Shown here: in pieces, positions 281 to 49,809 of the stretch
Position numbering within the stretch: the first letter of the stretch is position 1
Layout: each line of letters begins with the position of its first letter
Assembly: GCA_008632985.1 (NCBI GenBank)
Contig: QPGO01000012.1
Span: forward strand, 806,001 to 858,376
DNA: 52,376 nucleotides
DNA from: Psammoneis japonica
Lineage: Eukaryota
Direction: 5' to 3'
The notes under the pieces: model-generated
What the model saw: the letters and a program-made list of their open reading frames with translations, nothing else
What the model was told of the DNA's origin: nothing
Databases searched by the model: none
Translations under genes and position numbers: made by a program

Positions 281-1195
281 ATTCACGACGGCAACGCAAC
301 TACTTGACAAAACCACTGCCGCTCTGTAGTGGCTGTCTTTCTTAGTAGTACATGTGTCCTTTCCCACTCGGCGCCTGTTGATCGCGGCTCTCCAAGAACA
401 ACATTGGCGTTTATTTCATATTAGAACTAGGTATTTGCACGACTACGGTAGGAGTTTAGATTTGAAAAGTTTGTCTATAGAGTGCAGGATTGGTGCAGGG
501 CACTGATTGATAACCTTGCATGATTGAGATTCTGTTGAACGGCGTCCTTGTTAAATGAACGAAGGGGAAATTCCTTCTTCAGAAGCGACACCATAATGCG
601 CTTCGTGCCCGACAACGCCCACAAGTGATGGGCAAAAGCAGAGCAGAGATTGTTTGCGGTATTTATCTAACGGACCTCCCAGGTTGGGAGATGGGCAGTT
701 ACTGCTTCATGCACACCCCCATTCAAGGGAAGTCTTGCACATCGATTTTTTCACAGTCCGTCTTGTAGCTTGATTCCTCCACTAATTTATTGTGTGCAGG
801 GTGTGGACATCATCATGAACAAAGTGCAAAATGATCTCAGATGCTGCTGGCATGCTGTGCTTGAAAAAAATGTGACACAAACTTTGAAAATTGTTTTGAC
901 AGCTGGTTGACCATAAATGAAAAGCTTCAGAAAAATGGGAAAAGTTGTCCATGCATGTTTCACCTGGTGCTGGAGCAAAGCAGGTCTCTCCCATGCCATT
1001 GCCCTGTCATGTTGTGGGGTGTGTGATGCTGCAGCATGTGACAGCCTCAGATGCAGGTGCTGCACTGAAAAAGAGTGACTCAAATTTTTGACCTTCTTTT
1101 ACAATTGATGGATGGATGGTGAACGAAACTTCAGAAAATTTGAAAATTGCCCTGCACATGTTGTCTGGTGCTGGAACAAGTCTTGGGTGGCAGCA

Positions 1196-1565
1196 GATGC
1201 ATTCTAGCCCCAGTTGGGAGCTCACAGTGCTGATGTGTGACAGAACATTTTTTGATCATGCATCACACATGCAGCACATGCACATTTGTGTGTGTGCTCT
1301 TCTGCAAAATTGTCTCTCCACATCCCCTGCTTTCAATCTTGTGAAGCCAAAGACTTTTTATCACAGCCTTTGCAAGAACAAAAATGTGCCAGCTGTGCTC
1401 TTAAATGTCTGAAAAATGCAGCCACACAAACAAGAAATGATGCTGCACTTCAAGTGTGGGTGAGTTTGTGCACTTGTTCCCAAATTGCTTCTTTTTCTGT
1501 TGGCGATCATTGACATGATGCACTCATTGCCAAACAACTTTGCTGTGGAGCTTGCACACAGAATT
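1196..1565 (+). mobile_element. Degenerate MITE of the GACGCGTTCCAG-TIR family, running into the assembly gap
   Basis: Starts GATGCATTCTAGCCCCAGTTGGGAGCTCACAGTGCTGATGTGTGACA, a decayed version of the 8967 copy start. Ends GGAGCTTGCACACAGAATT like the subterminal part of the 8967 copy. Confidence 0.7.
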
Positions 1566-1815
1566 NNNNNNNNNNNNNNNNNNNNNNNNNNNNNNNNNNN
1601 NNNNNNNNNNNNNNNNNNNNNNNNNNNNNNNNNNNNNNNNNNNNNNNNNNNNNNNNNNNNNNNNNNNNNNNNNNNNNNNNNNNNNNNNNNNNNNNNNNNN
1701 NNNNNNNNNNNNNNNNNNNNNNNNNNNNNNNNNNNNNNNNNNNNNNNNNNNNNNNNNNNNNNNNNNNNNNNNNNNNNNNNNNNNNNNNNNNNNNNNNNNN
1801 NNNNNNNNNNNNNNN
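1566..1815. other. Assembly gap (250 N)
   Basis: Run of N. Confidence 1.
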
Positions 1816-1816
1816 C

Positions 1817-1915
1817 ATCTCCTGCACACAAAAGTTTTCAGAGCATTGCTGGAGTTTGTGTGACTTCTGTCAGTGCAAAATTGGCATCTAGAGCTGCTCA
1901 AACAGTCAATTTAAA
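1817..1915 (+). repeat. Dispersed repeat, second copy at ~10405-10515
   Basis: CACAAAAGTTTTCAGAGCAT...CTGTCAGTG(C/T)AAAATTGGCATCT...AGAGCTGCTCAAAC(A/G)GTCAATT occurs at both places, each just downstream of a MITE copy. Confidence 0.8.
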
Positions 1916-1919
1916 ACCC

Positions 1920-2700
1920 ACAGTCTGGATTTGCTCTGAAACACTGGCCTGTGTTGGCAACTCTGTTGGCGGGCCTGCTTGTTGCCTCCATTGCCAGAAG
2001 AAACTGCAGCCGTTGCAGCAGCAATCACCACAACAACAATGGCCACAACTCTCACAATGAGAATGACTCACCATTGATGGCCCTTCTTCAATGTGGCCTG
2101 GTCATTGCTGTCCTTGAGAGCACTGCTGCTCTGCCACTTCCATGGGAGCAACTTTTGTCAAGGAGACTGGAGCATCTGTTTGTTGGCAAAGACACCTGTT
2201 GTCTTTGTGCAAACACTCCCTTTCTTCATCTCTCACTTCTTGAGCAGGACAGGCTTCAGGTGCAAACAAGGTGCTTTCATCATGAGAAGCATTTGTTGGG
2301 GGAGCTTGGATGTGATGAGAGCAACATTGTTTTCACTGCCTTGTCCAGCTCACACAACTTGACCTTGTCAATTCACTGCAAAGGCACCAGGCCAGGCAGG
2401 ATCCATTGGTGATTTGGCATTTCTTGCACAAGCAAGTGATGGGGTGAAAGGATCAGCAGAGCCTCCCCTTTCCAAATCTGAATCAAGGTCAAACTGTTTG
2501 ACTTGATCTTCTTTGTCCCCTTGCTGATGGCATTTGCTGATGGCATTTGTGATGATGCTGTTGCTTTTCTTGATGATGACAATGAGGCATTCAAATGTTT
2601 CAGTCTCTTGCCTTTCCACTTCCTTGGATTTCTTCTTTCTTGGATTTGAACAAATCACAGAAATGCAAATCCCTTGCCTGTTGCACATGTCATGCTCAAC
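1920..2700 (-). pseudogene. Decayed gene for a single-pass membrane protein (PGAFAV motif, TM helix, P/T-rich stalk)
   Basis: Minus-strand fragments read DPAWPGAFAVN, VILIVRVVAIVVVVIAAATAAVSSG and PPTELPTQA, with stops and frameshifts. The region is TA- and CG-depleted. Confidence 0.35.
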
Positions 2701-3269
2701 TGAGATTCTGTTTGGGGTCCCTCTTGTTGGATTGATTCTTCATGATTTTTGTGCTCGACATCAAGGCTGTGTCTTTTTGTGAAACATGAGAAGTGAAAAG
2801 GTTTGCAGAATGACAGAGTCACGAGTCACAAATTCAATGGCTCATTGTTGCTCTTGTGTGCTCAAATGTGCAGTCAAATGAGATCAAACAAGAGCATGAA
2901 AAGTGAGTCCCAAACTGCCAAACACGACCAGCCATTGCACACACACAATCTCAATGAAAACTTCAGTTCTGTCCATTTTTTATGGAAGTCATCAGAGCAC
3001 AGACAATGTGTGGACAAAAGCTTCAGCTCTGAATGACAGGAAAAGAGAAGGACCAACAAAGCAGCAGATGTTGAGAGGGCATTGAGTTCTGTGTGGAACA
3101 AGACAATGCTTGCATCAGCCAGCCAAGGGCACCCCAGTTTTTCTGGCACTTCTCAGGTTTGGACTCTGACCCTCACACTCTCCAAACAGGGCCCCATGAT
3201 GCACAGGAACTTGGTGACCATGTTTGCTGCAACTTCTGATGAGGAGGCCACAAAGACCTTTTTTCTCCT

Positions 3270-3894
3270 GCAACCAAACAACCTGAGCCCTCTTGAGCTT
3301 GTGTGCTTTTCAAAGTGGTTGTGGGGGTTGGAGAACACCAGGAGAGAATGGGGTGGGGGCAGACAGATCAAGCAGGTCAGCACCTTTGGCCCACAGCTGG
3401 GGGGTGCAGACCTCACACCTGCAGCTGTCTGTGAGCACTGCTCCCCCCCTTTGCACAGAGGCTGCCAAACAACTTTGTTGTGGAGCTTGCACACAAATTC
3501 CATGGGCCCAATGTTGTGCAGATTCCCACCTGGGGCTGGAACACAGCGGCGGGGGGGGGGGGGGGGGGGGGGGGGCAGAAAAGAAACATGATCCCAAGGG
3601 TGACACCACAAAAGAAGTGCGGCACACTCAAGCACACAACAACCCACATGGTGCATGGGGCTGGTGCAACCAAACAATCTGAGCCCTCTTGAGCTTGTGT
3701 GCTTTTCAAAGTGGTTGTGGGGGTTCAAGAAGGACACCAGGTGAGAATGGGGTGGGCAGATGGATCAAACAGGTCAGCCAGCCAACACAAGGGGTGCAGC
3801 CTTCAGCCCAGTGCAGACCTCACACCTGCAGCTGTCTGTGAGCACTGCTTCCCCTTTGCACAGAGGCTGCCAAGCAACTTTGTTGTGGAGCTTG
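3270..3894 (+). repeat. Two ~220-bp direct repeats (~3270-3490, ~3667-3894). The first ends in a decayed MITE right end (~3547) followed by a poly-G run
   Basis: CAACCAAACAA(C/T)CTGAGCCCTCTTGAGCTTGTGTGCTTTTCAAAGTGG... occurs twice. GGGCCCAATG...GATTCCCACCTGGGGCTGGAACAC matches the MITE terminus. Confidence 0.75.
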
Positions 3895-4267
3895 TGCACT
3901 GTGCTTGAAGAACGAGTGTAAACGAAAGTAGAACGAAGTTCAAAAGGTGAAAATTGTGAGAGTTGTTTCTGCGCAATCATTTTGGATTTCTCCGAACGGG
4001 TTCTCAACAGCCTAAACCCTTTGTGCTGCTCCTACAGACAAAAGGCCTTTCGGAGAATATGATCGTGACAACAGATTGTCCGGATACGATTGACATTGAC
4101 ACGTAAGATGTCAACATCATCGTACGATCGCATTTGCGATTCTCGACATCCGATCAACTCTGTGTGATTGATCTGTCCTTCGTACGAACCCACGATTGAC
4201 GTACGATTGGAATATAAATTTATTTAAGATATACATATATATAACGTACATAACAACGCATATTGCA
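3895..4267 (-). repeat. 3' LTR of gypsy #1
   Basis: Direct repeat of 9392-9770; retains many TA sites that are TG/CA in the other LTR. Confidence 0.9.
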
Positions 4268-4293
4268 TTCGCCTCCCTAATTGCACATTAGAG

Positions 4294-7200
4294 TCAGTCG
4301 TTAAACGGTATTATCCGACATATATTGACAGTGTCAATGACGTTACCGCGTTTGATCTGTACTGTGCCATTAGTATGTACCGTTGTTATTACATACGGTC
4401 CAATATAGGGCTGTTCTAATTTCTGCGAATCTTTTTCGAGTAGTATTTTCTCTCCTACTCTGTACGTATAAGGAGTACGTCGAGCATTCTCTCGAGCGTT
4501 ATTTTTATTTATGATTTCTTGTTTTCGCTGCTGGATTAATTTCCTGTCTGCGACATGTTGGACGTTAAAAATCATGTCCCTGTTGAAGACCAATTGTCCA
4601 GGTGTAGCTTGCGTAGTAGTATGATACGTAGAACGTACAGCAAAAGCTACTGCTGATAATATTCCAGCGAAGGGATCCTCAGTATGCAGACGTGTATGTT
4701 GCAAATCAAGCGTACGAATCATATTTCCGAGTTTGATGTACGCGCGTTCAATAATTGCGTTTGCTTGTGGATTTCCTGCAGTTATGGGCTTGACTTTAAT
4801 GCCACAATCCTCTTGCACCATGTCTTTAAATTGGTGTCCGATGAACTCACTTCCACGGTCATGTGTAATTAACGATGGCCAAGGATGTCTACTTAACCAT
4901 GTTCATTCTAACAATCCGGCTGCAGTTGTGGATTCCTCATTTGGGATTTTCACAACTTCAAACCATCCGGTTGCCGGATCAACCATTGTTGAACATTTCA
5001 GGACCAGGGGTTCTTTCTCTCCCTCACGATGCATCTTGCATGGCCCAATGAGATCCACACACAGTCGTTCCCATGGTGCTGATTCTGCACACTTGGGGGG
5101 CAAATGTCCACATTTCTTGTGTTTCTTTTTGAATTTCTGGCATGTCTCACATCTCGACACGCATTTTCGTGTGTCTTCACGCAAGGTGGACCACCACAAG
5201 TGTTGTGAGATTGTCTCTTCTGTTCGATTTATGCCAGGGTGAAGAAGGCATGCATGGCACCAATCTGTCACTGCTTTTTGCAATGTCTCAGGGATGACGA
5301 TTTTTTCCTTGTGACGTGTGAGCAACCTGTCTCGCTCGCCTCCACGAAAAGTCTTCGCATGACATGTCTCATTTGACAATTTGGAGAGAATGTCTTCATC
5401 CCGCTTTTGTTCACAATCAAGAACTTTACAATTTAATGGAAAGACATTGTCACAGGACTTTGGTGGGACCTTCTCAGCCAACTCTTCTGTGCTGAGGGTT
5501 TCCACAGGTTCCATTTTCTTCACAGTGAGTCGGCTGATCGCAGGGTGAAGAAGGTGCGCATGACACCAATCCATCACTGCTTTTTGCAACGTCTCAGGGA
5601 CGACAATTTTTTCCTTGTGACGTGTGAGCAACCGGTCTCGCTCGCCTCCACCAAAAGTCTTCGCATGACATGTCTCATCTGACAATTTGGAGAGAATGTC
5701 TTTGTCCCGCTTTTGTTCACAATCAAGAACTTTACAATTTAACGGAAAGACATTGTCGCAGGACTTTGGTGGGACCTTCTCAGCCAACTCTTCTGTGCTG
5801 AGGGTTTCCACAGGTTCTGTTTTCTTCACAGTGAGTCAGCTGATCGCATCTGCAACAACATTCGCCTTGCCCTCAAGGCACATTGTTTCGGGACTGCACT
5901 CTTCTGTTGTTGGACGCCAATGCATGACTCTGTCCGTTGTGAAATTTTTGTGTGTGAGATTTTTGTGATCCGCACATGTGTTCATCTGTTGGCCAAACAG
6001 CACATTTCGGAACTCCTTTGATGTCTCCACTGTGGACAACAGCTCTTTTTCTGTTGTGGCACAACGCGTCTGCGCTCCATTCAGCTCACGGCTGTAGAAG
6101 GCAATTGGTTGGTTCTTCTGCGTAACAACTGCCCCCAATTGAGAATTAATTGCGTCAGCGTGCATCTCAAAGGGCACATTGAAATTCGGGTGTGATGACA
6201 GTGTGTCCTTTGAGATTGTGCGCTTCACATTTTCGAAGGCTTTTTGTTCTGTTTTGGTCCATTGCCACTTTACTTGTGTTGAAGCAAGTTTGGCTAAAGG
6301 AGCTAAAACATGAGATCGTCGAGGCCACATGTCTCGACAGTGGTTGATCATGCCGACAAAGCATCGCAATTCCTCACAAGTTTTGGGAGTTGCGATCGCG
6401 TGAATCGCTTCTGCCTTTTTTGGAATTGGACCAATGCCATTGCAAGTGACATGGAAGCCTGGATGGTCCACTTCGGGTTTAGCGAAAAAAGACTTTTCGG
6501 CATTGACCTTCAATCCGGCTTGTTCCAGGCACAAAAACACCATCTCAAGCTTCTTGAGGTGGTCTTGAAAATCACCTTTTGCAAGGCACAATGTGCAGTC
6601 AATGTGAGTTCTGACGAACTCCAGACCTGCCATGAGCTCACTCATGTGCTCTTGGAAAATGTCTGGAGCTCCACAGATTCCCACAGGGAGTCTACAGTGC
6701 TCATGCTTGCCCCAAGGCATGACAATCGCGCACAAATGATGTGCATGCGGTGTTGGTTCGACATGACAGCATCCCATGTTTAAATCTAGGGACGTTGCAT
6801 GCATGAAACCTTCAAGTTTCTGCAGCACATCCTGAATGTTGGGCAGAGGAAACGGCGTGCATGTTGGCCTCTTACCCAGCTCACAAAAGTTGGATGGAAA
6901 CCGAACTCGACCATTTTTCTTGGGTTGAATGAAGGTTGGAGCGGCCCATTCAGAGCAATCCATTTTTCTTGAGACTTTTAACTTGCATGGTCTTTCAACC
7001 TCTTTACGAGCAGTCGCCTCCAAGGCTTGTGGTGCGGGAAATGGTTTGGCATGATGCGGACTCACGCCTGATTTCAACTTTAAATCCACTGGCTTCCCGG
7101 TCCATTTGCCTGGAGAACCATCGAAAAGGTTTTCAAATCTTTTTAAAAGGAAGTTCAGCTGCTTCTGCTCTTCAGGAGTTAGATGAGTGGCTGCTGCTGT

Positions 7201-7704
7201 CACATTGTTGAGGTTTGCGGCATGACAGTCTGAGTCAAGGATCCGATTGACCCTGTCATTAAGACCAATCACTGCATGAGATTCCTCAATGTGATCGGCA
7301 ATCAACTTAAAAACATCGGCATCGAAGTGTGCATCAACATTCTTCACAGGAGTGGTTGCATCTTCCCATTTGATCTCTTCATTTGAGAAGTCTGACATCA
7401 TCCCAAGACTTGACATTAAGTCACATCCCATGATCATGTCACAACGACTCGAAGAAGAAGAGGAGTCATCAACATGTGCTGTTGTTTCAATCATCTCATG
7501 TTTGTCAAATTCGGGTGAGGAGAATTGGATTTTACATTGACTGTCAGTCGTAAAGAACCCTCCTTTGGTTTCCCAGAGTTTGGTGGTGGATGCTTTGGTT
7601 CTGAGTTTCCGCGTGAATTTGCGCAAAATTGTGGTTGACGATGTTCCGCCATCGAGGAGAACGTGCAGAGGCTTGTTTTTCGCTTTACCTGGAGAGGCAC
7701 TCAT
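4294..7704 (-). pseudogene. gypsy #1 pol (protease, RT, RNase H, integrase), with premature stops
   Basis: LLDGGTS (PR); WAAPTF, LDLNMGCCH, THIDC (RT, from YYH/YIDD); AFYSRELNGAQTRCATTEKELL, DHKNL (RH); HPG..CETC, CVDLIGP, NPQANAIIER, GPY (IN). Confidence 0.92.
5235..5846 (-). repeat. In-frame 306-bp tandem duplication in pol (RH-IN junction)
   Basis: 5235-5540 is repeated at 5541-5846. The peptide EPVETLSTEELAEK...LLHP occurs twice in ORF 4903..5829. Confidence 0.9.
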
Positions 7705-7800
7705 GTGAGCGACGACAACTGGACTAGTGTGAGTTGTCTTGGCCCTTTTTCCGGGCTTCCCAACATCCAGCAGTGCGCAAGACTCCTCTTGCGGTGCAAG

Positions 7801-8960
7801 TCATTCCTCAGAATCGCTGCGCGTCAATTTTTCAAACTGACAATTCTCCTCGTCAAGGGTGTCAGAGTCACAATCTTTGCTCTTGTGCTTTTTGTCGTTG
7901 TTTGAAGAACTCGCTTTGAGCAATTTTTGAACTGCTTGGACTGCCACAGCATTCAACTCTTCTTTGCGAGAGGCGTCATCATCATCGCGACGAGACCACG
8001 TGCGGTTGCCATTTGAACGGTGCCGTTTTGGGTCGGGATCACAGTTCCCATGGCGTTCTTTTGCAAGTCTTTTAATCGACCAGCACTTGTCCGCATTGTG
8101 AGTGGATTTTTTGCACAGAATGCACCACTTGTCGGACTGAGATTTTTCGGTGCCATGTTGGTGACCATTTTTGGAACCACGTTGGGAACCACTCTTGGCT
8201 TTCGATCCAGCACTGCTGCTGGGATCAGCCTTGGCATGAATGCCATCGAATGCATCCTCAGCGACCTCTGGGTGCTCCAAAAACTCAACCAACTCGTCAC
8301 AGGCATGTTTCAAAATTTCGAAACCCTGGACGGTCGACTGGCGCTGCCACTTTCGAGGTGCAAGATTGAAGAGGACATCCTTGAGCTTGTCCTCCTCGAT
8401 CTTCTGATCCTTCCCAAAGGGAGGACAGAACTTGAGGTCTTCGTTGACTTCCTGGACCCAAGCAGCAATCTCGCGTACTTTCATGGACTCGGGCTTCTTG
8501 AGATTGCGACGCAAACAACGTTTCTGAACCGAAAGTGCGTTCTTGGGAAACACATGTTTCGTGAGGTGCTGCAGGCATTTCTCGAAGCTTCCTTCCATGG
8601 ATTTGTCTTCAATGTTTGCCGCTGCATTCTCAAAAGCACGTGGAGCGTCTCCTTGTGACAACATGCGCATGAGACAGAACTTGTCGGCTTGCTCACTGAT
8701 GTTCTGGCCCACTGGAAGTTGATCGCAGCTCTTTAAAAATTCGATGCACTTGGGAACGCCCTGTTTCTTGCAGTGCTCGATGTCAATCGTGCAGGTCCAA
8801 CTGTCCTTCTTCTCCGGATGAAAACACTGCTCCATCTTGAGACACTGGCTCGGTTTGAGGCTCTTTGGCTCAGAGTTTGATTCCAAGGGTTGAGGGACGA
8901 TTCTTTCCTGCCTCAACGAAGTCTTGGCCTTGTTTGCCTGAGGTGAAAGCTTTATCTTGA
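7801..8960 (-). pseudogene. gypsy #1 gag
   Basis: ORF upstream of pol with VFPKNALSVQKRCLRR and WCILCKKSTHNADKC knuckle-like motif; homologous to gag of gypsy #2. Confidence 0.8.
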
Positions 8961-8966
8961 ACCAGT

Positions 8967-9362
8967 GACGCGTTCCAGCCCTGGGTGGGAGCTCGCAGTG
9001 CTGACGTGTGACACAAATGATTTTTGTCATCCGTCGCATGTTTTGCACGTACATTTCTACGTGTGACATTTAAAAAAAATTGTCCAGACTTGCTGTTTTG
9101 CGAAGCCCCAGACGTTTTGCATGACGCATTTATAGAAACAACAATGCGCCAGTTACATTCTTCAATGTCTGAAGAATGTAACTGGCCAAGTAAAAATCGA
9201 TGCACTTCAATCATGTGCGAGTTTGTGCATTCGCAAAATTGCCTCATTTTCTGTTGGCGAACATTGACATTCTAACCACCGCACAATTTTGCTGCGGAGC
9301 TTGCACGCAGAATTCTGCGGGCCCAATGTCACACGGATTCCCACCCACGTCTGGAACGCGTC
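8967..9362 (+). mobile_element. MITE, TIR GACGCGTTCCAG, 4-bp TSD CAGT, inserted in the gypsy #1 leader
   Basis: Perfect 12-bp TIRs with CAGT on both sides. Confidence 0.92.
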
Positions 9363-9391
9363 CAGTTGCCTTCTGTGGTGTGTGTGCACAA

Positions 9392-9770
9392 TGCACTGTG
9401 CTCGAAGAACGAGTGCAAATGAAAGTGGAACGAAGTTCAAAAGGTGAAAATCATGAGAATCATTTCTGCGCAATCACATTGGATTTCTCCGAACGGGTTC
9501 TCAACAGCCAAAACCCTCTGCACTGCTCCTGCAGACAAAAGGCCTTTCGGAGAATGTGATCATGACAACAGATTGTGCAGATGCGATTGACATTGACACG
9601 TGAGATGTCAACATCATCGTGCGATCGCATTTGCGATTCTCGACATCCGATCAACTCTGTGTGATTGATCTGTCCTTCGCACGAACCCACGATTGACGTG
9701 CGATTGGAGCACAAATTTATTTAATGTGTGGGTGTGCACATGTGCAATGCACACAACAACACACACTGCA
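9392..9770 (-). repeat. 5' LTR of gypsy #1
   Basis: Direct repeat of 3895-4267, followed by TSD CTTG. Confidence 0.9.
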
Positions 9771-9862
9771 CTTGCATGGCTGATGTGGCCTGCGCTCTCA
9801 CTTGCAAAAAGTTGTTGTGGCAGAGGGAGGAGGTGGTCAAGGCAAAGGGCAAAACAAGGCCT

Positions 9863-10258
9863 GACGCGTTCCAGCCCTGGGTGGGAGCTCGCAGCACTGA
9901 CGTGTGACACAAAAAATTTTTGTCATCCGTCGCATGTTTCGTGCGTACATTTCTGCGTGTAACATTTCAAAAAAATTGTCCAGACTCGCTGTTTTGCGAA
10001 GCCCCAGACGTTTCACATGACAAATTCACAGAAACAATGATGCGCCAGTTGCATTCTTCAATGTCTGAAGAATGCACCCAGCCAAGTGACAAATGATGTT
10101 CTTCAATCATGGACGAGTTTGTGCGTTCGCAAAATTGCCTCATTTTCTGTTGGCGAACATTGACATTTTAATTGCCTGACAATTTGAGTGCGGAGCTCGC
10201 ACGCAGAATTCTACGGGCCCAATGTCACACGGATTCCCACCTGCGTCTGGAACGCGTC
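9863..10258 (+). mobile_element. MITE, same subfamily as 8967-9362, TSD GCCT
   Basis: Perfect TIRs, GCCT duplicated, interior colinear with the 8967 copy. Confidence 0.92.
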
Positions 10259-10841
10259 GCCTTCTTTGGGAGTGGGGGCACATGCCACAGCATGTTGCAA
10301 TCTGCCCCAATTTCATTGGAGCGTTGTCACGGTGTGGGGAGGCAGGCAAACACGTGCCCCATCTCCCCCCAGCCAGAGCAGCAGAGAGCTTCTGCTGCTG
10401 GCCTCCTCCTGTGTGCACAAAAGTTTTCAGAGCATGGCTCTGGAGTTTGGCTGTGTGGCATCTGTCAGTGTAAAATTGGCATCTGCTAGAGCTGCTCAAA
10501 CGGTCAATTATTTAAGCCACCGGTTCATGCCGAGAACCAGAAGCAACGGTCGAAACCCACGTTCTGGATTTGAGCTGAAACACGGAGCTCGAAGACATGG
10601 CTTCTTTCGGTTCATTCGTTCGTTCGTTCGTTCCGAGACACAATTCACGGTCCTTACGTCAGCCGTCGAGCAAAAAATAAAAAATCACATGCGTAGAAAT
10701 CTACGCAAATTGAATACCGGAAATTGTGGTGGCGCGCCATTTTTTTGGCCCGCGTCCCACCCACAAAAATCACTCGCAACACACTCATAAACTCAACACA
10801 GCAACATCTACGCAAACAATAACTACGAAATCAAAACCACC

Positions 10842-11219
10842 ATGAGAAGCCCCTCCAGCGAAAAAGACACCTCGACTGCACCATCATCGCCAGAAAACAA
10901 CGTCCCTGGCATTCAGGACGTTCATCAAGTCCGCAAGCTTCAAGAGGACGAAAGCTCGGACGACGAGAGCTATCAAGACGAATGCGAAGAGGATATTGAG
11001 GATGATGACGGCGAGTATGAAGTTGAAGAGCAGGAGCCAGAAGCTAGTGACGACGAGGCTGCCAATGTGATTCATGAGCTTGTCGAGCTCTTTGTTCAAA
11101 AGAACGGTCGTGCACCCAACCAAGAAGAAGTGATGCAGTGGATTGATGTCTTCAAGAGTCTCAGTGTTGAAGGAGCTTCGCAGCCGGAAGGTGCAGCTCC
11201 GAAGGTGGCCTCCGAATAG
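10842..11219 (+). CDS. Small acidic protein (125 aa), unknown function
   Basis: ATG in ACCACCATG context; D/E-rich tract then helical ELVELFVQKNGRAPNQEEVMQW; Tyr codons intact. Confidence 0.75.
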   Translation: MRSPSSEKDTSTAPSSPENNVPGIQDVHQVRKLQEDESSDDESYQDECEEDIEDDDGEYEVEEQEPEASDDEAANVIHELVELFVQKNGRAPNQEEVMQWIDVFKSLSVEGASQPEGAAPKVASE

Positions 11220-13352: not shown

Positions 13353-13372
13353 GTTTATTGCTTTTGTTGTTG

Positions 13373-39212: not shown

Positions 39213-42200
39213 TCACCGTGTTGTCCAGTGGCGAGGCATGCTGCACACTCCCCCATGATCAGGGCCATTAAGTGACAGAATGTCTTGCTGGTGACAGGGT
39301 GCAATCTGCTGCAGATCACACGCATCTGTCAGCGCTCCGTTCTGGATGCGCAACGTGCCGTTGTCATGTGCACGGACAACTCTGGCGGGTCCTGCATGGC
39401 TGTCAGAACCGCATTTAGAGGATTGTTCCTGTTTGACAAGTGCCAATTGCCCTGCGGCATGTTGATGCTCCTTGCGTTTCTGATTTTTACGCTTGTTGTT
39501 TAAGTGGATGAGCTTCTGCTTTCTGGTTTCCATGTGCTTCCACTTGGCACGATGGGCAACAGACAAAACCGCATCGCGTCCGAAGACCAATTGCGTGGGA
39601 CTTGCACGCGTGGTCGTGTGTGCTGCAGCTCTAATGGCAAAGGCCACTGCGGAGAGGATGCCACTCCATGGGTCATCTTCGTCCAGTTCCACATCCTGCA
39701 CTGAAAAGGAACACACCATGTTGCCAAGTGTCTGGTGCACACGCTCCACTGTGGCATTTGCCTGTGGATTCCGTTTGCTTGTGGGTTTCTTCAAAATCCC
39801 ACAGTCATTTTTAATCATCTGGCTAAATTCTGCCATGAATTCTGTCCCACGGTCACAAACCACCTGGGTTGGCCACGGACATCTGCACAGCCACGTTTGT
39901 TCCACGACGTTTGCTGCGACGTCTGCGCGTTTCGCAGACACTTCTTTAATCTCGAACCACCCGGTTGCTGGGTCAATCATTGTGACTGCCCATGATTGCA
40001 AGGTGTCCTTTCCGCGTCTTTGAATTTTATGTGGCCCTGTCATGTCCATGCACAGAGTTTCCCATGGAATTGTCTCTGCGACCTTTTCTGGCAGCTTCCC
40101 ATGACGCTGCGTTCGGCGTTTTGTCTTCTGGCATCGATCGCACTTGACGCACGTAGAATGCACCGTAGACCTCACACTGGGCCAATGGAAGTGCTGGGCA
40201 ACAGATGTTTCCGCAAGTGTCTCACCTGGATGACACAGTGTCTCGTGGTGCCATTCAGTTAGCGGAACCTGCAATGACTGTGGCACTGCGATTTTGTCCT
40301 CATGACAGATTAACTGTCGTGATGACCCTCCCCCACGACACGCGCGAATGGAGTGGTCGGACGAGTCCTCAGCTCTTGAGAGCAGGCGCTTGTCCTTTTG
40401 TTGTGCTTTTTGAATGTGCTTGAAGCTAATGGGCAGAGACAGCTCATCTTGAGCGTCTGCATTAAAGGCTTCATGCAAAGGACGACTCGATGGAGTGTCT
40501 TTTACATCCGGATTGGCCTCGGAAGGCAAGCTGGGTGCTGGTCGAAGGCGACTAAGAGCGTCAGCGACCAGGTTGTGGGTGCCCTCAACATGGCGTAATT
40601 CGGGACCGCATTCTTCGCATGTCAACCGCCAGCGCATAACGCGCTCGGTGTTGAATGCTTTGTGCGTAAGATTTTTATGATCAGCACACATGATCACACG
40701 ATGACCAAGGAGAATCGTTCGAAATTCTTTCAACGTCTCCACAATGGCGAGCAATTCTCTCTCCGTTGTTGCACAATTTAATTGCGCACTGTCAAGCTTT
40801 CTGCTGTAAAAGGCGACAGGTTCATTGTCTTGGGATGTGACTGCTCCCAATTGATGTTTAGAGGCATCGGCATGCATCTCAAAGGGTTCATTAAAATCAG
40901 GATGTGACAACAAAACATCATCCGACATTGCTCGTTCAACGGTTTCGAACGCCTCGTCTTCAACGGACGTCCACTCCCACTTGACAGTCTCGCTTGCGAG
41001 TCGTGTTGGCGGAGCCAAGACTTCAGAACGTCCAATCCACGTGTCGCGGCAGCAGTTCACCATGCCAACAAATGAACGCAGGTCGCGTTCATTGGTTGGG
41101 GTCGCGATTCGCTCAATGGCGTCGACTTTATCAGGTGTTGGTCGCACTCCGTCTCTGTTGACCAGATAACCCAAGCACTCTAATTGGGTTTGACAGAAGT
41201 GAGATTTAGTTGCGTTGACTTTTAGTCCTGCTTTCTGGACCCTCAATGAAGCTTCTTCAAGTTTGTTGAGGTGATCTTCACAGGTGCCTTTCGTCACGAC
41301 GAGAAGGTCATCTAAGTGCATTCGAACGAACGACAGATCTTCAAATGAGCCTGACATGCGTTCTTGGAAAATGTCTGGCGAATTGCATGATCCCATGGGC
41401 AATGCCTGCATCTCATGCTTGCCCCACGGGAAGATGAGCGTGCAGAGCTTCTTGCTGTCAGTGTCCAATCGGATGTGACAACAGCCCATGTTTAAATCCA
41501 GCGACGCAGCCCACACAAAGCCTTCGAGCTTGAGCAGCATGTCTTGGATGTGAGGAATCGGATGAGGCAATCGCTTGATCCGTTTGTTCAGCTCTCTGAA
41601 ATTGTTGACAAAGCACACCGTTAAATCTTTCTTCGGTGTGATGAATGATGGAGCTGCCCATTGGGATCGGTTGACGCGTTTGAGAACACCGATGCGCACT
41701 GGGCGCTCTACTTCCTCACGCAGCGTAGCTTCGTGCGCACGAGGCACTTCACACGGACGAGCGTGGCATGGTTCCACACCCTCCTTGAGTTGGATGTGGC
41801 AGGGTTCTCCCTTCCATTCTCCCAATGTCCCATCAAGTGAGGACTCATGGCGCTTCAACAGTGCCAAAAGGTCGTTTTGTTGAACTGCAGAAAGTCCTGT
41901 TGCCCCTCGCGTCATGTCCTCGAGGCAGGCCGGCGCGTGCTTGGTGTCCAAAATGCGCGAAATCCGGTCGGTTTCCGAAGACAAGGCTTCTGGATCTTGA
42001 AGATAGAAGGAGGTTTCCACCGCAGCATCTACGTGCCTCATTGGTGCTTCTCCATTGACCAATGGCCACTCTGTCATCTGTTTAGAGAAGACAATGTCAA
42101 TGCCTTGTGTCTCCAGAATGTCACGTCCAACAATCACATCGCACTTGCCCAACTTTCCGTTGTGTGCGTGGACGGTGTGCTCAAGTTCTGCAGTTTCGGA

Positions 42201-42506
42201 TAATTCTGGTAACCAAAATTTAACGGCACAGTCGTCAGACGCACCAAACGAGCCTGCTGCCGCAGTCCAGTTTGTCTCAGCCGTTGAATGGCTTCGCAGA
42301 CGTTTGCAGCATCGACTGTCGAGTGGAGCACTGCTGGCGCCACTGTCCAGCAGTGCCTTGGCAGTTTGAGTCTTGCCCTTGCCATGTTTGGCATTCACAG
42401 CTGTGGACAAGATTGGAGTGAGATGAGTCTTTTTAACTCGTTTGCGGGATTGGCCTGCAACACGTGTACGATGGTAATTCAGTTGTTCATTTGCACATTC
42501 ATCCAA
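39213..42506 (-). pseudogene. gypsy #2 pol (PR-RT-RH-IN), open frame but with many missense changes
   Basis: LLDSGAS; WAAPSF, LDLNMGCCH, MHLDD; HADAS, AFYSRKL, DHKNL; HPG..CDRC, CMDMTGP, DRGTEF, NPQANATVERVH. The catalytic YxDD is changed to HLDD. Confidence 0.92.
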
Positions 42507-42542
42507 TGCATTAAAACCACCTGCATCGTGTCGGCCCCCTTC

Positions 42543-43618
42543 TCAGGCGTCCGAATCTTCGGAATCACTTAAGTTGAGGTCGCGGAAGTGATTGAGCTCC
42601 TCCTCGCGGGCCTTGCGCTTTTTCTGAGCGTTGGCAAAGTGCTCCTCGACCTTCGATCCGATGAGAGTGTTAATGTCTTCCTCATTCCGAGGTTTTGCAC
42701 CAGGCTTGCCGCCTCTGTCATTGGAATGTCCAGTCTTGACACGTTTCACGTGGTGCTTGAGCTGACGGCAATCTTCCGCATCATGTCCACAGTTGGTCCC
42801 GTGCAGCACACACGACTTCTGGGTGTTCCGCTGGGTCGTGATCAATGACTCAGGATTGTCCATTCTACGTCCCGCTTACGTGGAACCTTGGCATGTTGGT
42901 CCTGGTTACCTTCGGTGAGCTCGACCTGCTCGATGCGCTCGCAGAACTGTACAAATTCGGTGATGGCATGCGCCAACGGGTCAAAATTCTGTAGCGTCAT
43001 GAACTTCTGCCATGCGTTCGGCACACCGCACTCGAACACATCGCACAGTTCGTCATTGGGTGATGGTGCCGGTGTTTCTCCATCCTCCGTCACGGGTGGA
43101 AACTGAGAGATGCAGCCGTTAATTTCAACAGCCCTCGCGACGCAGTCACGAGTGGAAACCTCTGCGGGCTTGCGCGTGAAGCGCCGCAGATGACGCTTCC
43201 GCAGCAGCACCGCCCCATTTGGGAAGATGCTTTCCTTTAGCTTCGCGATGCATGCTGCGCACGCAGCATTGGTTTGGGATGCCTGCTTGTCAGCGGCATT
43301 GCCAAATGACGTCAGAGCATCGCCCTGCAGCAAGTCAAGCATGAGGGCAAATTTCGCTGGCCCGTTCGTGATGTTTTGTCCTTCGTGCACGCGATCCACG
43401 TTGCGCAGAAAGATTGGGAGTGTCTCGCATGTAGCCGCAGAAAGGTGCGGGATGCCCATCTCGTGCGTTGGACCATCCGGATCAGTGGGGTTGTTGCGCA
43501 GCTTGAACGTCTGGCACTCGCCCTGCTGCAGCTCTTTCTTCTCCGGCCATGCGAACGGAGTCGGCGGCTCAACCCGCTTCTTCATGGTCGTTTTGAGATT
43601 TGTCGGTCCTGCCAACAT
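42543..43618 (-). pseudogene. gypsy #2 gag (one frameshift near 42850)
   Basis: ORFs 42842..43618 and 42543..42863; IFPNGAVLLRKRHLRR, CVLHGTNCGHDAEDC; homologous to gypsy #1 gag. Confidence 0.82.
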
Positions 43619-46600
43619 TTCGTAGTTTCGTTTCTGTGGATTTCGTCACCTCGCACAACATGCGGGAGCAATGTCACTGTGCCCTGTGTGTGCACTGGGC
43701 GCTGAAAAAGAAGATGTGTTGCGACTTTGTCGTTGTGAAAATTGTGAGCTAGTTTAGAGTAGAGAAAATGGGATCGTGCGAATGGGGAATCTTGCCAAAT
43801 CCCTGTTCGTTCGCATTTGGATCGCATTAAATCGATCGTGCGTTCGCATTGTGGATCGTGCGAATCAAGCCATCACGCGCCATGCACGAGTGATGTCATC
43901 GTGTGGAATCACGCTGCCATTGTGGGCCAGACGACGGGCTAGTGTGCTTCACACGGATGCTCTCTTGGCATCCTTCTGGAATTGCCTGAGACCTAGAGCC
44001 ACGCCCTCCTGTGGTCGTGCTTCCCAGGTGCGTGTTGACAACACTGCGTTGCCACGCACAAGAGGCTTGTGCACGGTCTCGCCGTGTTGTCCAGCAGCAA
44101 GGCATGCTGCATGTGTTCTTCCACTGAATCAAGAAGGGCTGCTCGATCTTTTGCAAGGCACTCTTGTCGTTTGTCACACATTGCAGTCAGTTCTGCTTCT
44201 GCCATTCGCCGTTGGGATGACTTGCGTGAATCCGCATCGTGGCCGTGCACGAGTGCATTGTGTTCCTCCCACAGTTCCCACCATTGTCTCCAGATGAATG
44301 ACCCGATCTGCACCGTCCAATCTGGTGGATGCTTGTCTTCAGCTTTGTGTTGGCGAAGGACACCCGAGTCCCGCAAATGTCCCGACTGAATCAGGTTCCA
44401 CAAAGTTGAACAGCGGCCACCAAAAATCTGTCTCCAACCAACATCTGATTGCGCACGCCACAGCTCCCGACAGCGGTGATCGACATCATCCGTGCAAATG
44501 ATCTCTTCGTCAAACCAGGCTTGAAGAGAATTGATGAGGAAGTCTCGTAGAGTTGGCATTGCATCGATGCAGTCGCAACATTTCCGAAGGCCTTGTAGAA
44601 ACTTCCGGCGCCATGCTTCGTTTTCTGGACATCGAAGGATGTGATCCCTGTCTTCCATGGGATGCTCACACTCAAGGCAGTGATGAGGGCGAACCAGATT
44701 GTACCGGTGTGCCATCTTGTTGGCAGGAAGGAGATCGTGTGCGAGTTTCACCGTGCCAACGTGTTGCTTGGAATGACGCTTGATCAAAACTGCGTGGGCG
44801 TCCCAGTTCACGAGGTCAACAACCTCTCGTCGCCATTGATTGCGCTCGACTGTGTGCTCCAACAGCTGGGGAGCAGCAGCTGCATTTCGAAGCTGTTGCT
44901 TGTAACCAGAGGTCAAGGCACCGTCTGCAAGTGACAAGTAAGAATGGCAGTGAGGAAACGGGAGAACACGTGATGTGTCCCAATCACAGCGACCTTGATG
45001 GGCGCCAGCAAGTCGATCCGCTCTGATGTTCACTCTTGCATTTGGGGGAAGTGAGCTGGCAGGAGCATGCTTGTCTTGATGCCCCTTTGCCCACTTGATC
45101 GACACATTTTCCGGATCTTGCAATTGTTGAAACACACGCAACATCTCGTTGATGACGTCCCAATCCGAGGACAGCGCATTGGCTCCGTGGTGTCGTAAAT
45201 AAAAATCACGTGAATCGTGAGAAGAGTCTTCAGGATTTGGAGCGGGAAGGGTGAGAGTGAGCTTCTTGAGACAGGACACAAGCGACTTGTTGTCACAATG
45301 AATGTCCAATGTCTTGTTCAATCTGGAATGGCAACATTCAACACATCGGTGGATGAAACGAAGAATGGAAAGAACACCGCAAGCCTCTGCACGGTGCGAC
45401 GATGGTTTGTGCCCGAAAACTGGTCCTGCACAATCTACGAGGGGAACCCCTTGGAGTGTGATCGACCACCCAAAGGCAGCGCCTTCATTGACAGATCCAT
45501 CACTTCCTGCGACAAGTGTAGAAGAGTCGAAGCATTGAACCAAGAGAAGGGGGGAAACATGGAAATCTAGTTCCGCAAACAGCTGAGATTCCCATTGAGG
45601 GAGTGTTTGCAGCATGTCTTGAAAAGAATCTGGAGCACTTGGTGCGATTGCAGGGGCCACCGTCGTTCTTGGGATGCTGAATTGCCATCTTCCATCTTCT
45701 GTCGCAGTGACGTCTGCTGGGTGTGATTCATCGGTTGGCGCTGGCACCACCTCGATCTCTCCAATGGATGCCGCTCTCGTTCCGTCAACCAAGAAGATCT
45801 CAAACCCTAACGGGCCCTTGACGCACAGGCAATTTTCTGAGGAAGAATGATGAGCTGACGCCTGCATGCGCATCTGCGACGGAGGAACTGGCCAGTCTCC
45901 CAGCGGTTCTTTTAAACGAATTGTGGAGGCATGGCATGGGGTTTTGCAGAATTTCTTCCACACTGACCAGGCCCGAGCATTCGGCTTGTGTTGTTCAATG
46001 TTGTTCAATGCACTCACACTGCTCCGAATTGAGGGGTCACCATTTGCCTTGGTTTCGTCCAAATGTGTGCCATCCGCTGGGGTCATGTCGGAGACTGCAA
46101 GCACACGAAGGAATGATTGGCAACAATTGATCCATCGGATTTCTCTGTGACTGAACTGTTGTGATCGAAGTGCAACATCCACAACAAATTGGTCATTGTC
46201 ACGTTGAAGGGGCAGAATGCCATTGTGTGTCAGATGGACTTTGCCCTTGATTCCATGCAGAAACGAGCAAACTGAAGCAAACCAACATGATTCAAGGTGT
46301 GGCAACGGAGTGTCAACGTCCCACAAGAAGCTGTCACCTGTGCCCAAGTTCAGCTGCATCCATGCGATTGCAACATGAAACAGTTTGTGAGGTTGGTCCT
46401 CTCCGAGATGCAGATTCTCGACTCCCCGGGAATGTTTCAGCAATTGCTGCAATTGGGCCACACCCTGCTCTACATCAAGGGATCTAAAACCTCCTCCACC
46501 TGGCACTTGGGGGCCACACAGAACAAGTCGTTTGGTGTTGCGGTTGCACCCACATTTGGCAAATGTCACTCTCATCGCCTTCTGCTGAACTTTCTGGAGC

Positions 46601-49600
46601 TCTTTGTCCTGAAAAATAGAATTCGGTGACACATGCGTCATCGAGGAAAGGCAACAGGCATGACAATGCCGCCAGGTTTCCGTCCGATCAAAAGGGCACG
46701 AGCGAAGAAAAAGGGCAGCAGTGTCGCTTTTCTGTTGCAACTTCTGGAGCTGGGTCTTCTGGGCACCAATGGGGGCAATGTAGCACCCGAGGGTCTCATG
46801 TGGAGTGCACGCAGACAGTTGCGTGCTCGAATGAGAAGCAGACCTGTCGGCAGAAAAAATTTCTACATCAATGTCGTCGTGATGTGGACAGAGAAAGGGC
46901 TCACCGTGTTCCGTGAAATCCCATTCAATGGCATGAAAGGAACACTTTGGAAGTTCTAATTCATGTCCTGCCGCGTCGAGCAGATCGCACCATAGTTGGT
47001 TATCTTGTTTCAAGGCATGGGACAATTCGAACGCTGTTGGTTGGGGGCCAGTCCTAAACTCGTTGACCTGTTTGGAAGTGTCATCGACGTAGCCTCTGTT
47101 GCATGCTCTGATGAAGAACTTCCCATCTGGAGTCTCGAAAAAGGACCCGATCGCATTGGCGTCAAAAATGTCAAACAAACGACTGCACAGGGCACTCCAG
47201 CACCAAGGAGAGTTGCCGCTCCCTTGTCCTGTTCCGTAAAGAGGGTGCTGAGAAGAGTGTGAGTAACTGCGCTGCGCAAGACCCAGCAGTGTGCGAAGCC
47301 AGTGTCGAGCATGGTGCAGAGTTGACATGTTCACTTCCACCACGGATGAAGACATGCCGTCACTTCGTGAACACAATCCCACAACAGACGGAATGTTCCG
47401 ATCGCAGCAGGAGGTGCAGTCGTCGTCGCTGGTCAGCAACGTCTTGCGGGACGCTCGGGTTATTTCCAACATCAAATTTTCCAAGAACACTGGCGTTTGA
47501 GCTGACAGGAAAGACCGACAACCACAGATTCCCGGATCACACGTGCGATGGTTCTCCACATGCTGAGCTAGCTCTCGCCATTTGACGCTTGTAATGATTT
47601 GAAAGTCTGCCTCGCAGATGTGTGTCACACGCAATCTGTGCATTTTGTTGTTCCCAGGTTCTTTAAAGATCACAACGTTGACGACATCCTTCCATCGGTC
47701 ATGAGAATGACCCCATTTCAGAGCGCAGTTGATCAAGTGAAGGCAAATCTTGAAGAGAGTCTGTTGGATCTGGTCGAGAGATTCTTTCCGGGAGGATGGA
47801 TTCCCCTCTTTGTCAGTGTCCTTGGCAAAGGAGTGGGGGGCGTGCAATGCCTTCCAGTGGCCCAAGTGCAACCCTGACTTGACAGACGTTGAAGTCGATT
47901 CAGACCATGACTTTAATTTCGAGAGAAGAGATTCTGCTGACAAAAAGTGTGGACCACTTCAAGCTGCCATGGCATGGAGAGGGCATTGTTGTTGGGCAGG
48001 CAAGGGGACAAGGAAAACCTGTTGGCTTGCTGCAAAAGATTCGTGGGCTTGGTTGAGGTTGTGGAGAGGTCTTGTGGTGGGATTGCACCCATGGGATCAG
48101 CTGAGAGAAGAATCCAAAGTGTGCCTCTGAGTCCAACAAGGCCATTGAGATTGAAAAGGACAAGTTTTCAGGAGCCATGTTTTTGGATGGAGCTTGCAAA
48201 AGGAAGTTTGGATGCGTTCTTGATGGACTGCAAACTGATCATGCATTGGGGAACAAGAAGCACCCTAAGAAGGTTGAAGATGCTTTGGAGTTTCTGACTT
48301 TGCATTGGGAGCAGAGAGCCAAAGGAAAGAAGAAAGACTTGAAGTGTTCCAAGGACAACGAGGACCAAGAACTGGGGTTGTCATTTGTGGAAGTGGAGCA
48401 TGGATTGAAGTGCTGGAAATGCAGAAAGTGCGGACATGAAAAGGCAGATTGTCCACCTGCAGCAAAGAAGGATGAGGAAGTGAACATTTTCCAAGTCTGC
48501 GGATGGGCAGGCCAAACTTTTGCATGCCCAAGAATCAAGTTGTGAATTGCAATTGCTTGTGCAAAGGAGTGTGTTGGAAATCAAGGATTTTGTTGTGCAG
48601 ATGATGGTCAGAAGGGCGGCTGTTGAACCAAAAGATGTGGCTTGTGTTGTGCCGAAGTGCACCAGTGTGTGGCACAGAAAAGGTGTGGAAATGAAGCTTC
48701 TCACTCTTTGTGGTGACACTCAACTGTTGGCACACTGCATTTGTGACTCATGCCACAGACAGGAGTCTCAGGGGCTGCATTGTCCAACAACACCTTCTGT
48801 TGGGGGAACAGGTGATGCAGAACCCACGGCACAAAAGACAACGTCAAAGATGAATCACAAAAAAGCAACTCCAGAGACAAAACCAAAACCAACACCTGCA
48901 AGAAATGGTGTTTACAAGAACAAGAATGGGTCCAACAAACTGTGACTGAAAACAAAGCAGATGAGCGGGAACATGCAGAAGGAAATGGCGTTGCCAAAAA
49001 GGCTTTGTCAAATGTCGATGCACAACCGGAGCCAGTGCAAAAAGATGCACCACCTCCTCGAGGCAAAGCAAGAATTGTTTGCGGGTGTTTTGGAACAAAG
49101 CACACAAGTTCAATGAATTGCTTGTGCTGTGGTTGCATGTCATGCGAGTGCGAAAGCTGCAGCTGTTGTCTGTTTTGTGGTTTCCTGGTGCAGCAATTTA
49201 AACCAGAGTGTGCAAGGCACTGCCTGTCAATGCAAAGATGAAGCGCATGAATGGGTTTTGCTCACTCCCTGGTTCTCTGTCTTTGTGCCCAAATGGATGC
49301 TGCAATGATGCACAAGGAGAGGTCATCGAAATTTGACCAAGACTTTGCCAGCCAAACGACAACATTGGATGGCCAGGCTGGCTGCTTTTCCAAGTCAAAG
49401 TCTGCATGGTGTTGAGGAGCAACGCATTAAAGACCTGCCTCCATCAGCGTGGCAATCAATCTTTAGATGCAGCTTTCTGAGTGATTTGTCGTGTGCCCTT
49501 GCTCATTGTTTGAACAAACAGCACAGCTTGCTCGGTCAGCGGACCGCTCTGCTTCCATTGCATGCAGCCAGTCGTCCCGTGCCGCCAACCGCCTTGTTCT

Positions 49601-49809
49601 GTGAAAGCTGTTTCAATCATTAACATATATTAGTAGTTGAGTACATGTTAAAACGTCACGTTCAATCGTCAATATGGCGATGCACATACGTGGAGTGTTG
49701 TTCCACGTACAGTCCTGTGTATGTTTCTACGTGAGTTTGGAATTTTGACTTTTGAGTTTCCACCGCCATTTTTTGATTTTTGTGTGATTGCATTGTTCCA
49801 AGGAACACC

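Follow-up and report, generated by a model that had tools for sequence, protein, structure and literature searches.

Why is the dinucleotide TpA (TA) nearly absent from long stretches of a chromosome whose intact genes carry it at normal levels? This question is raised by one 52,376-nt window of contig QPGO01000012.1, which is the whole stretch of DNA analysed here and the scope of the measurements given below. A sequence-only reading of the window had noticed four TA-poor intervals with remains of transposable elements, and had attributed them to a repeat-targeted and undescribed hypermutation turning TpA into TpG or CpA. Our analysis points to a real TpA to TpG/CpA hypermutation of mobile-element DNA after its insertion, in a diatom-like nuclear genome, with a probability of about 0.8.

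Expected TA counts were calculated from base composition, and blocks were called by 500-bp bins and a two-state segmentation. For the window overall, the ratio of observed to expected counts (obs/exp) is 0.24 for TA and 1.5 for both TG and CA. Eight TA-poor blocks make up 39.7 kb, or 76% of the window, and hold 234 TA where 2430 are expected (0.10); the 12 kb outside them hold 569 where 915 are expected (0.62). Single blocks range from 0.04 to 0.12 for TA and from 1.35 to 2.0 for TG and CA, their edges are sharp to 100 bp or less, and the 500-bp bins of 33001-36000 contain no TA at all. These boundaries agree to about 100 bp with the four intervals noticed earlier, and the normal TA level of the three intact genes was also borne out (obs/exp 0.52-0.58), with 0.57 in 10401-13900, the region of an ammonium transporter gene, and 0.58 in 15101-17900, the region of an MRG/chromodomain gene. 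The longest interval, 17830-49620, is mostly TA-poor as claimed but not uniform, since it is broken by three TA-normal or half-depleted islands, each of which coincides with one separate element bounded by terminal inverted repeats (TIRs).

The ancestral state at TA sites

The direction of change can be read from two Ty3/gypsy retrotransposons, elements 1 and 2 (Table 1). The pol protein of element 2 was aligned to 19 full-length homologues, and then to its 30 closest relatives (54-60% identity). In the first alignment tyrosine was kept in none of 10 conserved columns (four are Cys, five His and one Met), compared with 154 of 182 other conserved columns kept (Fisher p = 3e-8), and the Tyr content of element 2 is 0.4% versus 2.5-4.6% in the homologues. 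In the second, tyrosine was kept in 2 of 26 columns (13 replaced by Cys and 11 by His) and other residues in 420 of 493. Further changes seen often were Ala for Thr (10), Val for Ile (6), Thr for Ile (5), Ser for Leu (5), Ala for Val (5) and Pro for Leu (3), the replacements expected when TA disappears from each of the codon phases. The peptide motifs from which the sequence-only reading had started, with Cys or His in place of conserved tyrosines, were all found where it implied.

Element 1 has a single reading frame at 4294-9069 on the minus strand, with three internal stops, all of them TGA. It is a mosaic, TA-poor in 4901-9724 and nearly TA-normal in 3895-4900. In the TA-poor part tyrosine was kept in none of 12 conserved columns and makes up 0.1% of residues; the last 203 codons and the 3' long terminal repeat (LTR) have nearly normal TA, and tyrosine makes up 3.0%.

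Among the conserved residues that were replaced, 61 of 97 in element 2 and 42 of 118 in element 1 can be accounted for by a single TA to TG/CA change. Loss of CpG accounts for 8 and 9 of them, respectively, and a reversal of the type made by repeat-induced point mutation (RIP) for 1 and 0. Mock dinucleotide models without overlap, three in number, account for 0-3 replacements, the range in which AA and GA mocks also lie; an AT to GT/AC mock, which overlaps the TA model at ATA/TAT, accounts for 19 and 16.

All 80 related gypsy loci recovered from metagenomes with a reverse transcriptase (RT) alignment had TA obs/exp of 0.55-1.26, and no Tyr-poor protein was found among the 119 near relatives listed (of 865 matches), in which Tyr is 2.9-4.9%. 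An element family natively free of TA was considered, and is ruled out by these TA-normal metagenome outgroups; selection against TA could not have replaced the catalytic tyrosines of dead elements. Another line of evidence comes from a noncoding family of about 390 bp with 25-nt TIRs, similar to miniature inverted-repeat transposable elements (MITEs), of which the window holds five copies, A to E. Five columns of the five-copy alignment hold TA, TG and CA together, for which an ancestral TA is the sole explanation by single steps. These columns, the Tyr to Cys/His replacements at conserved positions and the outgroup loci indicate that TA, and not TG/CA, is the ancestral state, as had been proposed.

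Timing, strand and sequence context of the changes

The two LTRs of a retrotransposon are identical at integration. In element 2, 25 of the 434 LTR positions differ between the two; six TG-versus-CA dinucleotides make up 12 of these, and the remaining differences are six of TA versus TG/CA, five CpG-type and two other. TG in one LTR and CA at the same site of the other therefore mean that the integrated element was hit independently on its two strands. Biased gene conversion was also considered, but it cannot yield TG and CA at one site of two LTRs. Three more TG-versus-CA discordant sites were found in the LTR pair of element 1. A maximum-likelihood fit to the element 2 LTRs gave about 19 ancestral TA per LTR, each converted with p = 0.74, or 1.35 hits per TA, and ordinary change was about 0.003 per site per lineage. 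In this LTR pair TA conversion appears to have been faster than ordinary substitution by a few hundred-fold, within about 100 to 1000 times, as an order of magnitude only.

The MITE-like copies form a gradient of TA content from A to E (Table 1). Copies A and B differ by 26 mismatches, 16 of which are TA versus TG/CA, and TA lies in copy A in 15 of these 16. Since the MITE-like copies are mutated, elements without reverse transcriptase are also affected. The discordant LTR sites and the MITE-like gradient show that the change occurred in DNA after insertion, on both strands and in retroelements as well as TIR elements, in keeping with the DNA-level action that had been suggested.

The two products are about equally frequent, with 23 TG and 19 CA among 42 polarisable events, and Cys and His replacements are balanced. 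The TG-CA z-score has a variance of 1.0-1.3 in 100-500-bp bins, below that of the gene blocks. This lack of over-dispersion indicates that strand hits are independent, and not processive runs along a single strand.

Sequence context was examined through tetramer survival, defined as frequency in TA-poor relative to TA-normal DNA. It is highest for TTAA (0.58), CTAA/TTAG (0.36), CTAG (0.25) and GTAA/TTAC (0.25), and lowest for CTAC/GTAG (0.11), ATAA/TTAT (0.08), GTAC (0.04), ATAG/CTAT (0.02), ATAC/GTAT (0) and ATAT (0); by our own arithmetic, one flank acting additively fits these values. To tell which flank this is, we used polarised events from the two pairs that were least saturated. Hits sorted by the base 3' of A were 8/16 for T, 11/28 for C, 3/17 for G and 4/19 for A (pyrimidine versus purine, p = 0.03), and the base 5' of T was without effect (5/16, 9/28, 6/17 and 6/19). 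The enrichment of product trinucleotides could not separate a 5' from a 3' flank effect, as CpG decay and composition are confounded with it. The preferred motif thus appears to be 5'-TAY, or equally RTA if T is the target, with TTAA the most resistant.

CpG loss can be separated from TA loss. Copies B-D keep 24-28 CG, yet their TA is down, and the CG obs/exp of the blocks varies from 0.07 to 0.83 while TA is 0.12 or less, with CpG loss extreme only in 801-3900. CpG loss is therefore a separate and secondary process. The block at 801-3900, where both TA and CG are depleted, is the oldest-looking one. Among the metagenome gypsy loci, five (L040, L035, L019, L050 and L074) have CpG obs/exp of 0.00-0.19 with TA at 0.72-0.78; CpG decay without TA loss takes place in other organisms.

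Since the only products are G and C, no TAA, TAG or new TGA codon can arise under the genetic code. TAA and TAG triplets, counted on both strands, amount to 347 across 39.4 kb of TA-poor sequence versus 473 in 12 kb of normal DNA, and dead elements retain open frames of 1109 and 1321 aa.

Proposed mechanism and competing explanations

In the process read from the sequence, T:A pairs of TpA steps are changed to C:G, giving TpG or CpA depending on the strand hit. It acts on chromosomal duplex DNA, with either strand chosen independently at each site, is fastest at 5'-TAY (the same as RTA) and slowest at TTAA, and runs until TA is almost gone. Elements are disabled by missense with their frames left open, through Tyr to Cys/His, Ile to Thr/Val/Met, Thr to Ala, Leu to Ser/Pro and Val to Ala replacements. 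For the chemistry, the leading idea is that an enzyme deaminates adenine, leaving hypoxanthine to be read as G; this enzyme would act in silenced DNA and recognise TpA, a self-complementary step. We rate adenine deamination at TpA of duplex DNA at a little short of an even chance. The activity would probably be episodic or age-dependent, which would explain intact young TIR insertions in TA-poor DNA.

The claim that such a process is undescribed did not survive, as the same signature arises de novo in the chlorarachniophyte Bigelowiella natans. In this alga, two integrated viral regions with giant-virus (nucleocytoplasmic large DNA virus, NCLDV) and virophage DNA mutate about 1000x as fast as the rest of the genome in mutation-accumulation lines, 230 of 231 mutations are A to G or T to C, all on TpA, and they are limited to some lines (Mettrop et al. 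2026, bioRxiv 10.64898/2026.01.13.699255). The preprint also describes 124 TpA-poor, CpA+TpG-rich clusters enriched in RT and DDE domains, reports the hypermutation target as single copy, proposes an ADAT2-like deaminase as a hypothesis, and makes no mention of diatoms or of context beyond TpA (bioRxiv 10.64898/2026.01.13.699255). Both systems change A:T to G:C at TpA, yielding TpG and CpA, within sharply bounded foreign or mobile DNA. They differ in host (a rhizarian versus a diatom-like stramenopile), in targets (viral DNA versus retrotransposons and TIR elements), in TA obs/exp (0.45 in the NCLDV region versus 0.04-0.12 here, near saturation) and in the kind of data (de novo events in lines versus assembled sequence only). 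The window has the Bigelowiella-type traits of TpA-restricted A:T to G:C transitions, sharply bounded mobile DNA and spared genes, and 27 of 51 1-kb windows pass both thresholds given in the preprint (TpA-poor and CpA+TpG-rich). By its signature, a second and distant lineage thus shows a process of this same kind. The TAY preference, the resistance of TTAA, the LTR-based proof of post-insertion action, the absence of strand clustering and the independence from CpG decay are new relative to the preprint, which is the single earlier description that we know of. No report of TpA hypermutation in diatoms was found in the literature searched, which covered a minority of the subscription journals and not the supplements of this preprint.

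The process is also distinct from other known systems, as the sequence-only reading had argued, by its opposite direction, the CG kept in copies B-D and the discordant LTRs. RIP of ascomycete fungi is similar in its heavy dinucleotide-specific transitions, in-place inactivation of mobile elements and skewed dinucleotides, but it changes C to T mainly at CpA and creates TpA and stops, whereas the process here destroys TpA and makes no stops. Deamination of 5-methylcytosine at CpG also yields TG/CA and has affected these blocks too (their CG obs/exp is 0.07-0.83), but it starts from another dinucleotide, and copies B-D lost TA and kept CG. ADAR and APOBEC3 enzymes likewise cause deaminase-type hypermutation of selfish elements, with A to G change and a 5' U preference in the case of ADAR, but they act on RNA or pre-integration cDNA and in a strand-coherent way; here the change is post-integration, on both strands, includes TIR elements and prefers a 3' pyrimidine. 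A last comparison is with the tRNA adenosine deaminases TadA and ADAT2/3 and with engineered adenine base editors. The natural target of the tRNA enzymes is A34, next to a U33 that is invariant, and U-A-C is the sequence edited by bacterial TadA. This target fits the T-A-Y motif, and it is this family that was proposed for Bigelowiella. We know of no natural TadA/ADAT member that deaminates adenine of chromosomal duplex DNA at such a scale.

Four of the 150 best representative pol relatives (P0235, P0290, P0307 and P0325) have 0% Tyr and 8-9.6% Cys+His, and they derive from ENA, NCBI, JGI and Logan. They look like hypermutated elements called as genes, which is a lead that the signature may occur elsewhere. 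Their motifs include, for example, GCCH and ACIDD/ACLDD, replacing GYYH and AYIDD.

The substitutions were compared with the Logan contigs of one DNA run (X1), which covers 88% of the sampled words of 9000-18500. X1 contigs show 1, 4 and 0 differences to 10259-13865, 13849-15422 and 15426-17834, respectively, at depths of 55-68, and the TA-poor 13849-15422 is one contig with a single-copy depth of 68. Among the differences to other contigs, the 40 with the best support include 25 in the TA/CG versus TG/CA classes. The sequence-only reading had called for confirmation in raw reads; the TA-poor sequence of this one block is present in the read-derived X1 contigs, but this sample may be the source of the assembly.

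Which base is attacked, and by what, can be explained in other ways. The most serious rival, though an unlikely one, is that thymine is the target, and that a TET/JBP-like or other enzyme converts the T of 5'-RTA to 5-hydroxymethyl- or 5-formyluracil, which pairs with G and gives T to C. In duplex DNA, A to G at TAY is the same as T to C at RTA on the other strand, and both the hydroxymethyluracil of dinoflagellates and the base J of trypanosomes prefer T before A. We know of no thymine-modifying enzyme or modified base of this kind in diatoms, and the Bigelowiella authors favour adenine deamination, likewise without proof. An error-prone repair synthesis by a polymerase eta-like enzyme with an A to G bias at WA motifs, repeatedly recruited to silenced DNA, has a slim chance. 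Polymerase eta makes A to G changes at WA motifs, with TA above AA, in immunoglobulin hypermutation, but here AA is unaffected: an AA to AG/CT mock accounts for 3 of 97 and 3 of 118 replacements versus 61 and 42 for TA, and the AAA/TTT frequency ratio is 0.89. In addition, there are just 2 non-TA, non-CpG differences between the element 2 LTRs, and the strand clustering that patch synthesis would leave is absent.

The remaining explanations deny that DNA was changed in place or in this direction. An error of sequencing or assembly, such as the systematic miscall of a modified base at heterochromatic TpA, is very improbable; the read-level check consists of contigs of one sample that may be the assembly source, but contigs of even depth (55-68) match the genes and a TA-poor block alike with 0-4 differences per 1.5-3.7 kb, the four Tyr-free pol proteins come from four different public sources, and the Bigelowiella changes were detected in Illumina reads. 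ADAR-like A-to-I hyperediting of RNA, fixed in the genome through reverse transcription, has an even smaller probability and is contradicted by the LTR and TIR-element data. Its A to G change and 5' U preference are similar to what is seen here, a likeness that the Bigelowiella preprint also cites, but the LTRs of one element differ as TG versus CA at the same sites, TIR elements without reverse transcriptase are mutated too, the 3' preference is for a pyrimidine rather than G, and both strands are affected without clustering. Close to negligible is a reverse polarity, in which TG/CA would be ancestral and ordinary or RIP-like C to T change would have made TA in the TA-rich copies. Pairwise differences by themselves are symmetric and would allow it; the catalytic and conserved tyrosines that are Cys or His in TA-poor copies, the 80 TA-normal outgroup loci, the RIP-like reversal that accounts for a single one of 97 replacements in element 2 and none of 118 in element 1, and the three-state columns, which need an ancestral TA, all contradict it.

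Several points weigh against the hypermutation as we explain it, or narrow what can be said of it. The attacked base of a T:A pair is not distinguishable from duplex sequence. The flank preference is based on 26 events, and the rate ratio depends on two background LTR differences. The agreement with X1 means consistency and is no independent proof, being from a single sample that is maybe the assembly source. Untouched copies of the high-copy TIR family and the mosaic of element 1 leave the targeting unexplained, and the activity could be extinct.

A wider proposal, which we put forward tentatively and consider rather doubtful, is that diatoms and chlorarachniophytes share an old genome defence, possibly spread over stramenopiles, alveolates and rhizarians, whose effector would be a natural adenine deaminase acting on chromosomal duplex DNA at 5'-TAY of silenced mobile or viral sequences, with TpA erased and elements disabled by missense alone. 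If true, this would be the first natural editor of adenine in double-stranded DNA, and a TpA-specific one would be of interest for base-editing research. The signature found here means that the process is not peculiar to one species or to viral insertions, and it provides a second lineage for phylogenetic profiling towards the enzyme. It also adds the mechanistic constraints of TAY, independent strand choice, post-integration action, independence from CpG decay and lack of nonsense codons. Annotation is affected as well, since TA-free dead elements keep long open frames and get called genes.

Targeting and further contents of the window

The proposed targeting to repeats was not supported. The MITE-like family has a summed contig depth more than 1000x that of single-copy DNA (about 65000 versus about 58 in the bin of copy A), yet copy A is TA-normal, and the mutated block at 13849-15422 belongs to a contig whose depth is that of single-copy DNA. 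Together, this TIR family and the gypsy LTRs stand at hundreds to over a thousand times the depth of single-copy DNA. The 872-bp TIR element, related to this family, is also TA-normal within TA-poor DNA (68/84 = 0.81 in 27301-28100). Hypermutated copies may have diverged past recognition. Summed contig depth in the block at 17901-22200 is 600-5000, where single-copy DNA has about 58. Copy A, the 872-bp element, the block of single-copy depth and the mosaic of element 1 are in line with a process that is episodic or dependent on age, plus recombination between old and young copies, rather than with a simple repetition trigger.

Table 1. Positions and properties of the features found in the window (TA and CG values of blocks are observed/expected counts and their ratios).
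Feature	Positions	Strand	Remarks
TA-poor block	801-3900		TA 8/179 = 0.04; CG 10/149 = 0.07; TG 1.98; CA 2.00
TA-poor block	4901-9000
TA-poor block	9201-10400
TA-poor block	13901-15100		TA 7/80 = 0.09; content not recognised; between two intact genes
TA-poor block	17901-22200		TA 23/287 = 0.08; CG 0.46; unidentified repeats
TA-poor block	22601-27300		TA 22/304 = 0.07; includes DUF7869 ORF
TA-poor block	28101-29600		TA 6/84 = 0.07; content not recognised
TA-poor block (largest)	30001-49600		TA 128/1146 = 0.11; copia-like RT motifs, gypsy element 2, 1321-aa frame
TIR-element islands in TA-poor DNA	22205-22596, 27262-28133, 29623-30014
Ty3/gypsy element 1	3895-9724	-	Pfam RVT_1, RT_RNaseH, Integrase_H2C2
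Gypsy element 1 LTRs	3895-4227 and 9392-9724		91.6% identical; TA counts 14 vs 2
Ty3/gypsy element 2	38812-44111	-	Pfam RVT_1, RNase H, Integrase_H2C2, rve
Gypsy element 2 LTRs	38812-39245 and 43678-44111		409/434 identical (94%)
Gypsy element 2 pol frame	39216-42542	-	1109 aa, no stop
MITE-like copy A	22205-22596	-	25-nt TIR; TA 27, CG 29; TA obs/exp 0.90
MITE-like copy B	29623-30014	+	TA 12, CG 28; about half converted
MITE-like copy C	8966-9390		TA 9, CG 24; nested in gypsy element 1
MITE-like copy D	9862-10282	+	TA 4, CG 26
MITE-like copy E	about 1190-1565		TA 3, CG 1; in block 801-3900
872-bp TIR element	27262-28133		related to MITE-like family; 22-nt TIR GACGTGTTCCAG...
DUF7869 open reading frame (ORF)	22579-23940	-	Pfam E = 3.5e-15
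Copia-like RT motifs	31249-31421	+
1321-aa open frame	43996-47958	-	Atlas RT/RNase H-like clusters, commonest phylum Bacillariophyta
Ammonium transporter gene	11676-13385	-	Pfam Ammonium_transp; two exons; intact control
MRG/chromodomain gene	15879-17714	-	Pfam MRG and MSL3 chromo-like; intact control
EamA transporter gene	49777-51075		TA-normal
Motif GCCH	41475-41486 and 6763-6774
Motif HLDD	41307-41318
Motif RCPWP	39870-39884
Motif RHPWP	4876-4890
Motif ALCGLK	31249-31266
Motif HVDN	31410-31421

In element 1, the switch between TA-free and TA-normal sequence near 4900 falls in the integrase region, within one frame. Its integrase part also contains a 308-bp tandem duplication (5235-5848, 94% identical), whose 19 differences include 4 TG-versus-CA doubles and 7 of CpG type. 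In the block at 801-3900, a 250-N assembly gap (1566-1815) interrupts MITE-like copy E.

With regard to element types, the sequence-only reading was right about Ty3/gypsy elements, of which there are two, copia-like RT motifs and a MITE-like TIR family, but its LINE and intron-containing pseudogene were not confirmed by Pfam searches, which included 85 further ORFs. Most of these ORFs lie in TA-poor blocks; 83 had no Pfam match at E<=0.001, and the other two (F-box and PilX_N) look unrelated. The PilX_N match (35663-36259, plus strand, E = 4.5e-7, 30 bits) lies in a TA-free stretch of 59-66% GC and is probably a compositional false positive, in a frame that stays open because stops are missing. 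The 1321-aa frame had no significant Pfam match, and could possibly belong to a second retroelement class that is poorly recognised by Pfam models after its loss of tyrosines. For 801-3900, 13901-15100, 17901-22200 and most of 30001-38800, Pfam gave no identification. For 13901-15100 there was also no convincing Atlas match, those of 14045-15139 being weak and to unnamed clusters. Position 14439, one of the few residual TA in this block of single-copy depth, reads CA in X1, as one of the four differences noted there, which could be allelic or strain variation.

The closest database proteins to the MRG and transporter genes are 38% and 68% identical, respectively, and no near-identical entry was found for any protein of the window; the few named best matches include the diatoms Cyclostephanos and Seminavis, and names cut short that look like Attheya and Dactyliosolen. 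From these few names and the Bacillariophyta neighbours of the 1321-aa frame, the source is read as a diatom or a near relative without database entries, and as other than Bigelowiella. Contigs of a second run (X2) match the genes, plus a few short mismatched TA-poor pieces, which says nothing for or against silencing. Although not recorded as RNA, X2 behaves like it, on the basis that it skips the intron of the ammonium transporter gene. This intron of 90 bp (12531-12620, GT..AG on the minus strand) is spliced out in an X2 contig, in which 12530 joins 12621.

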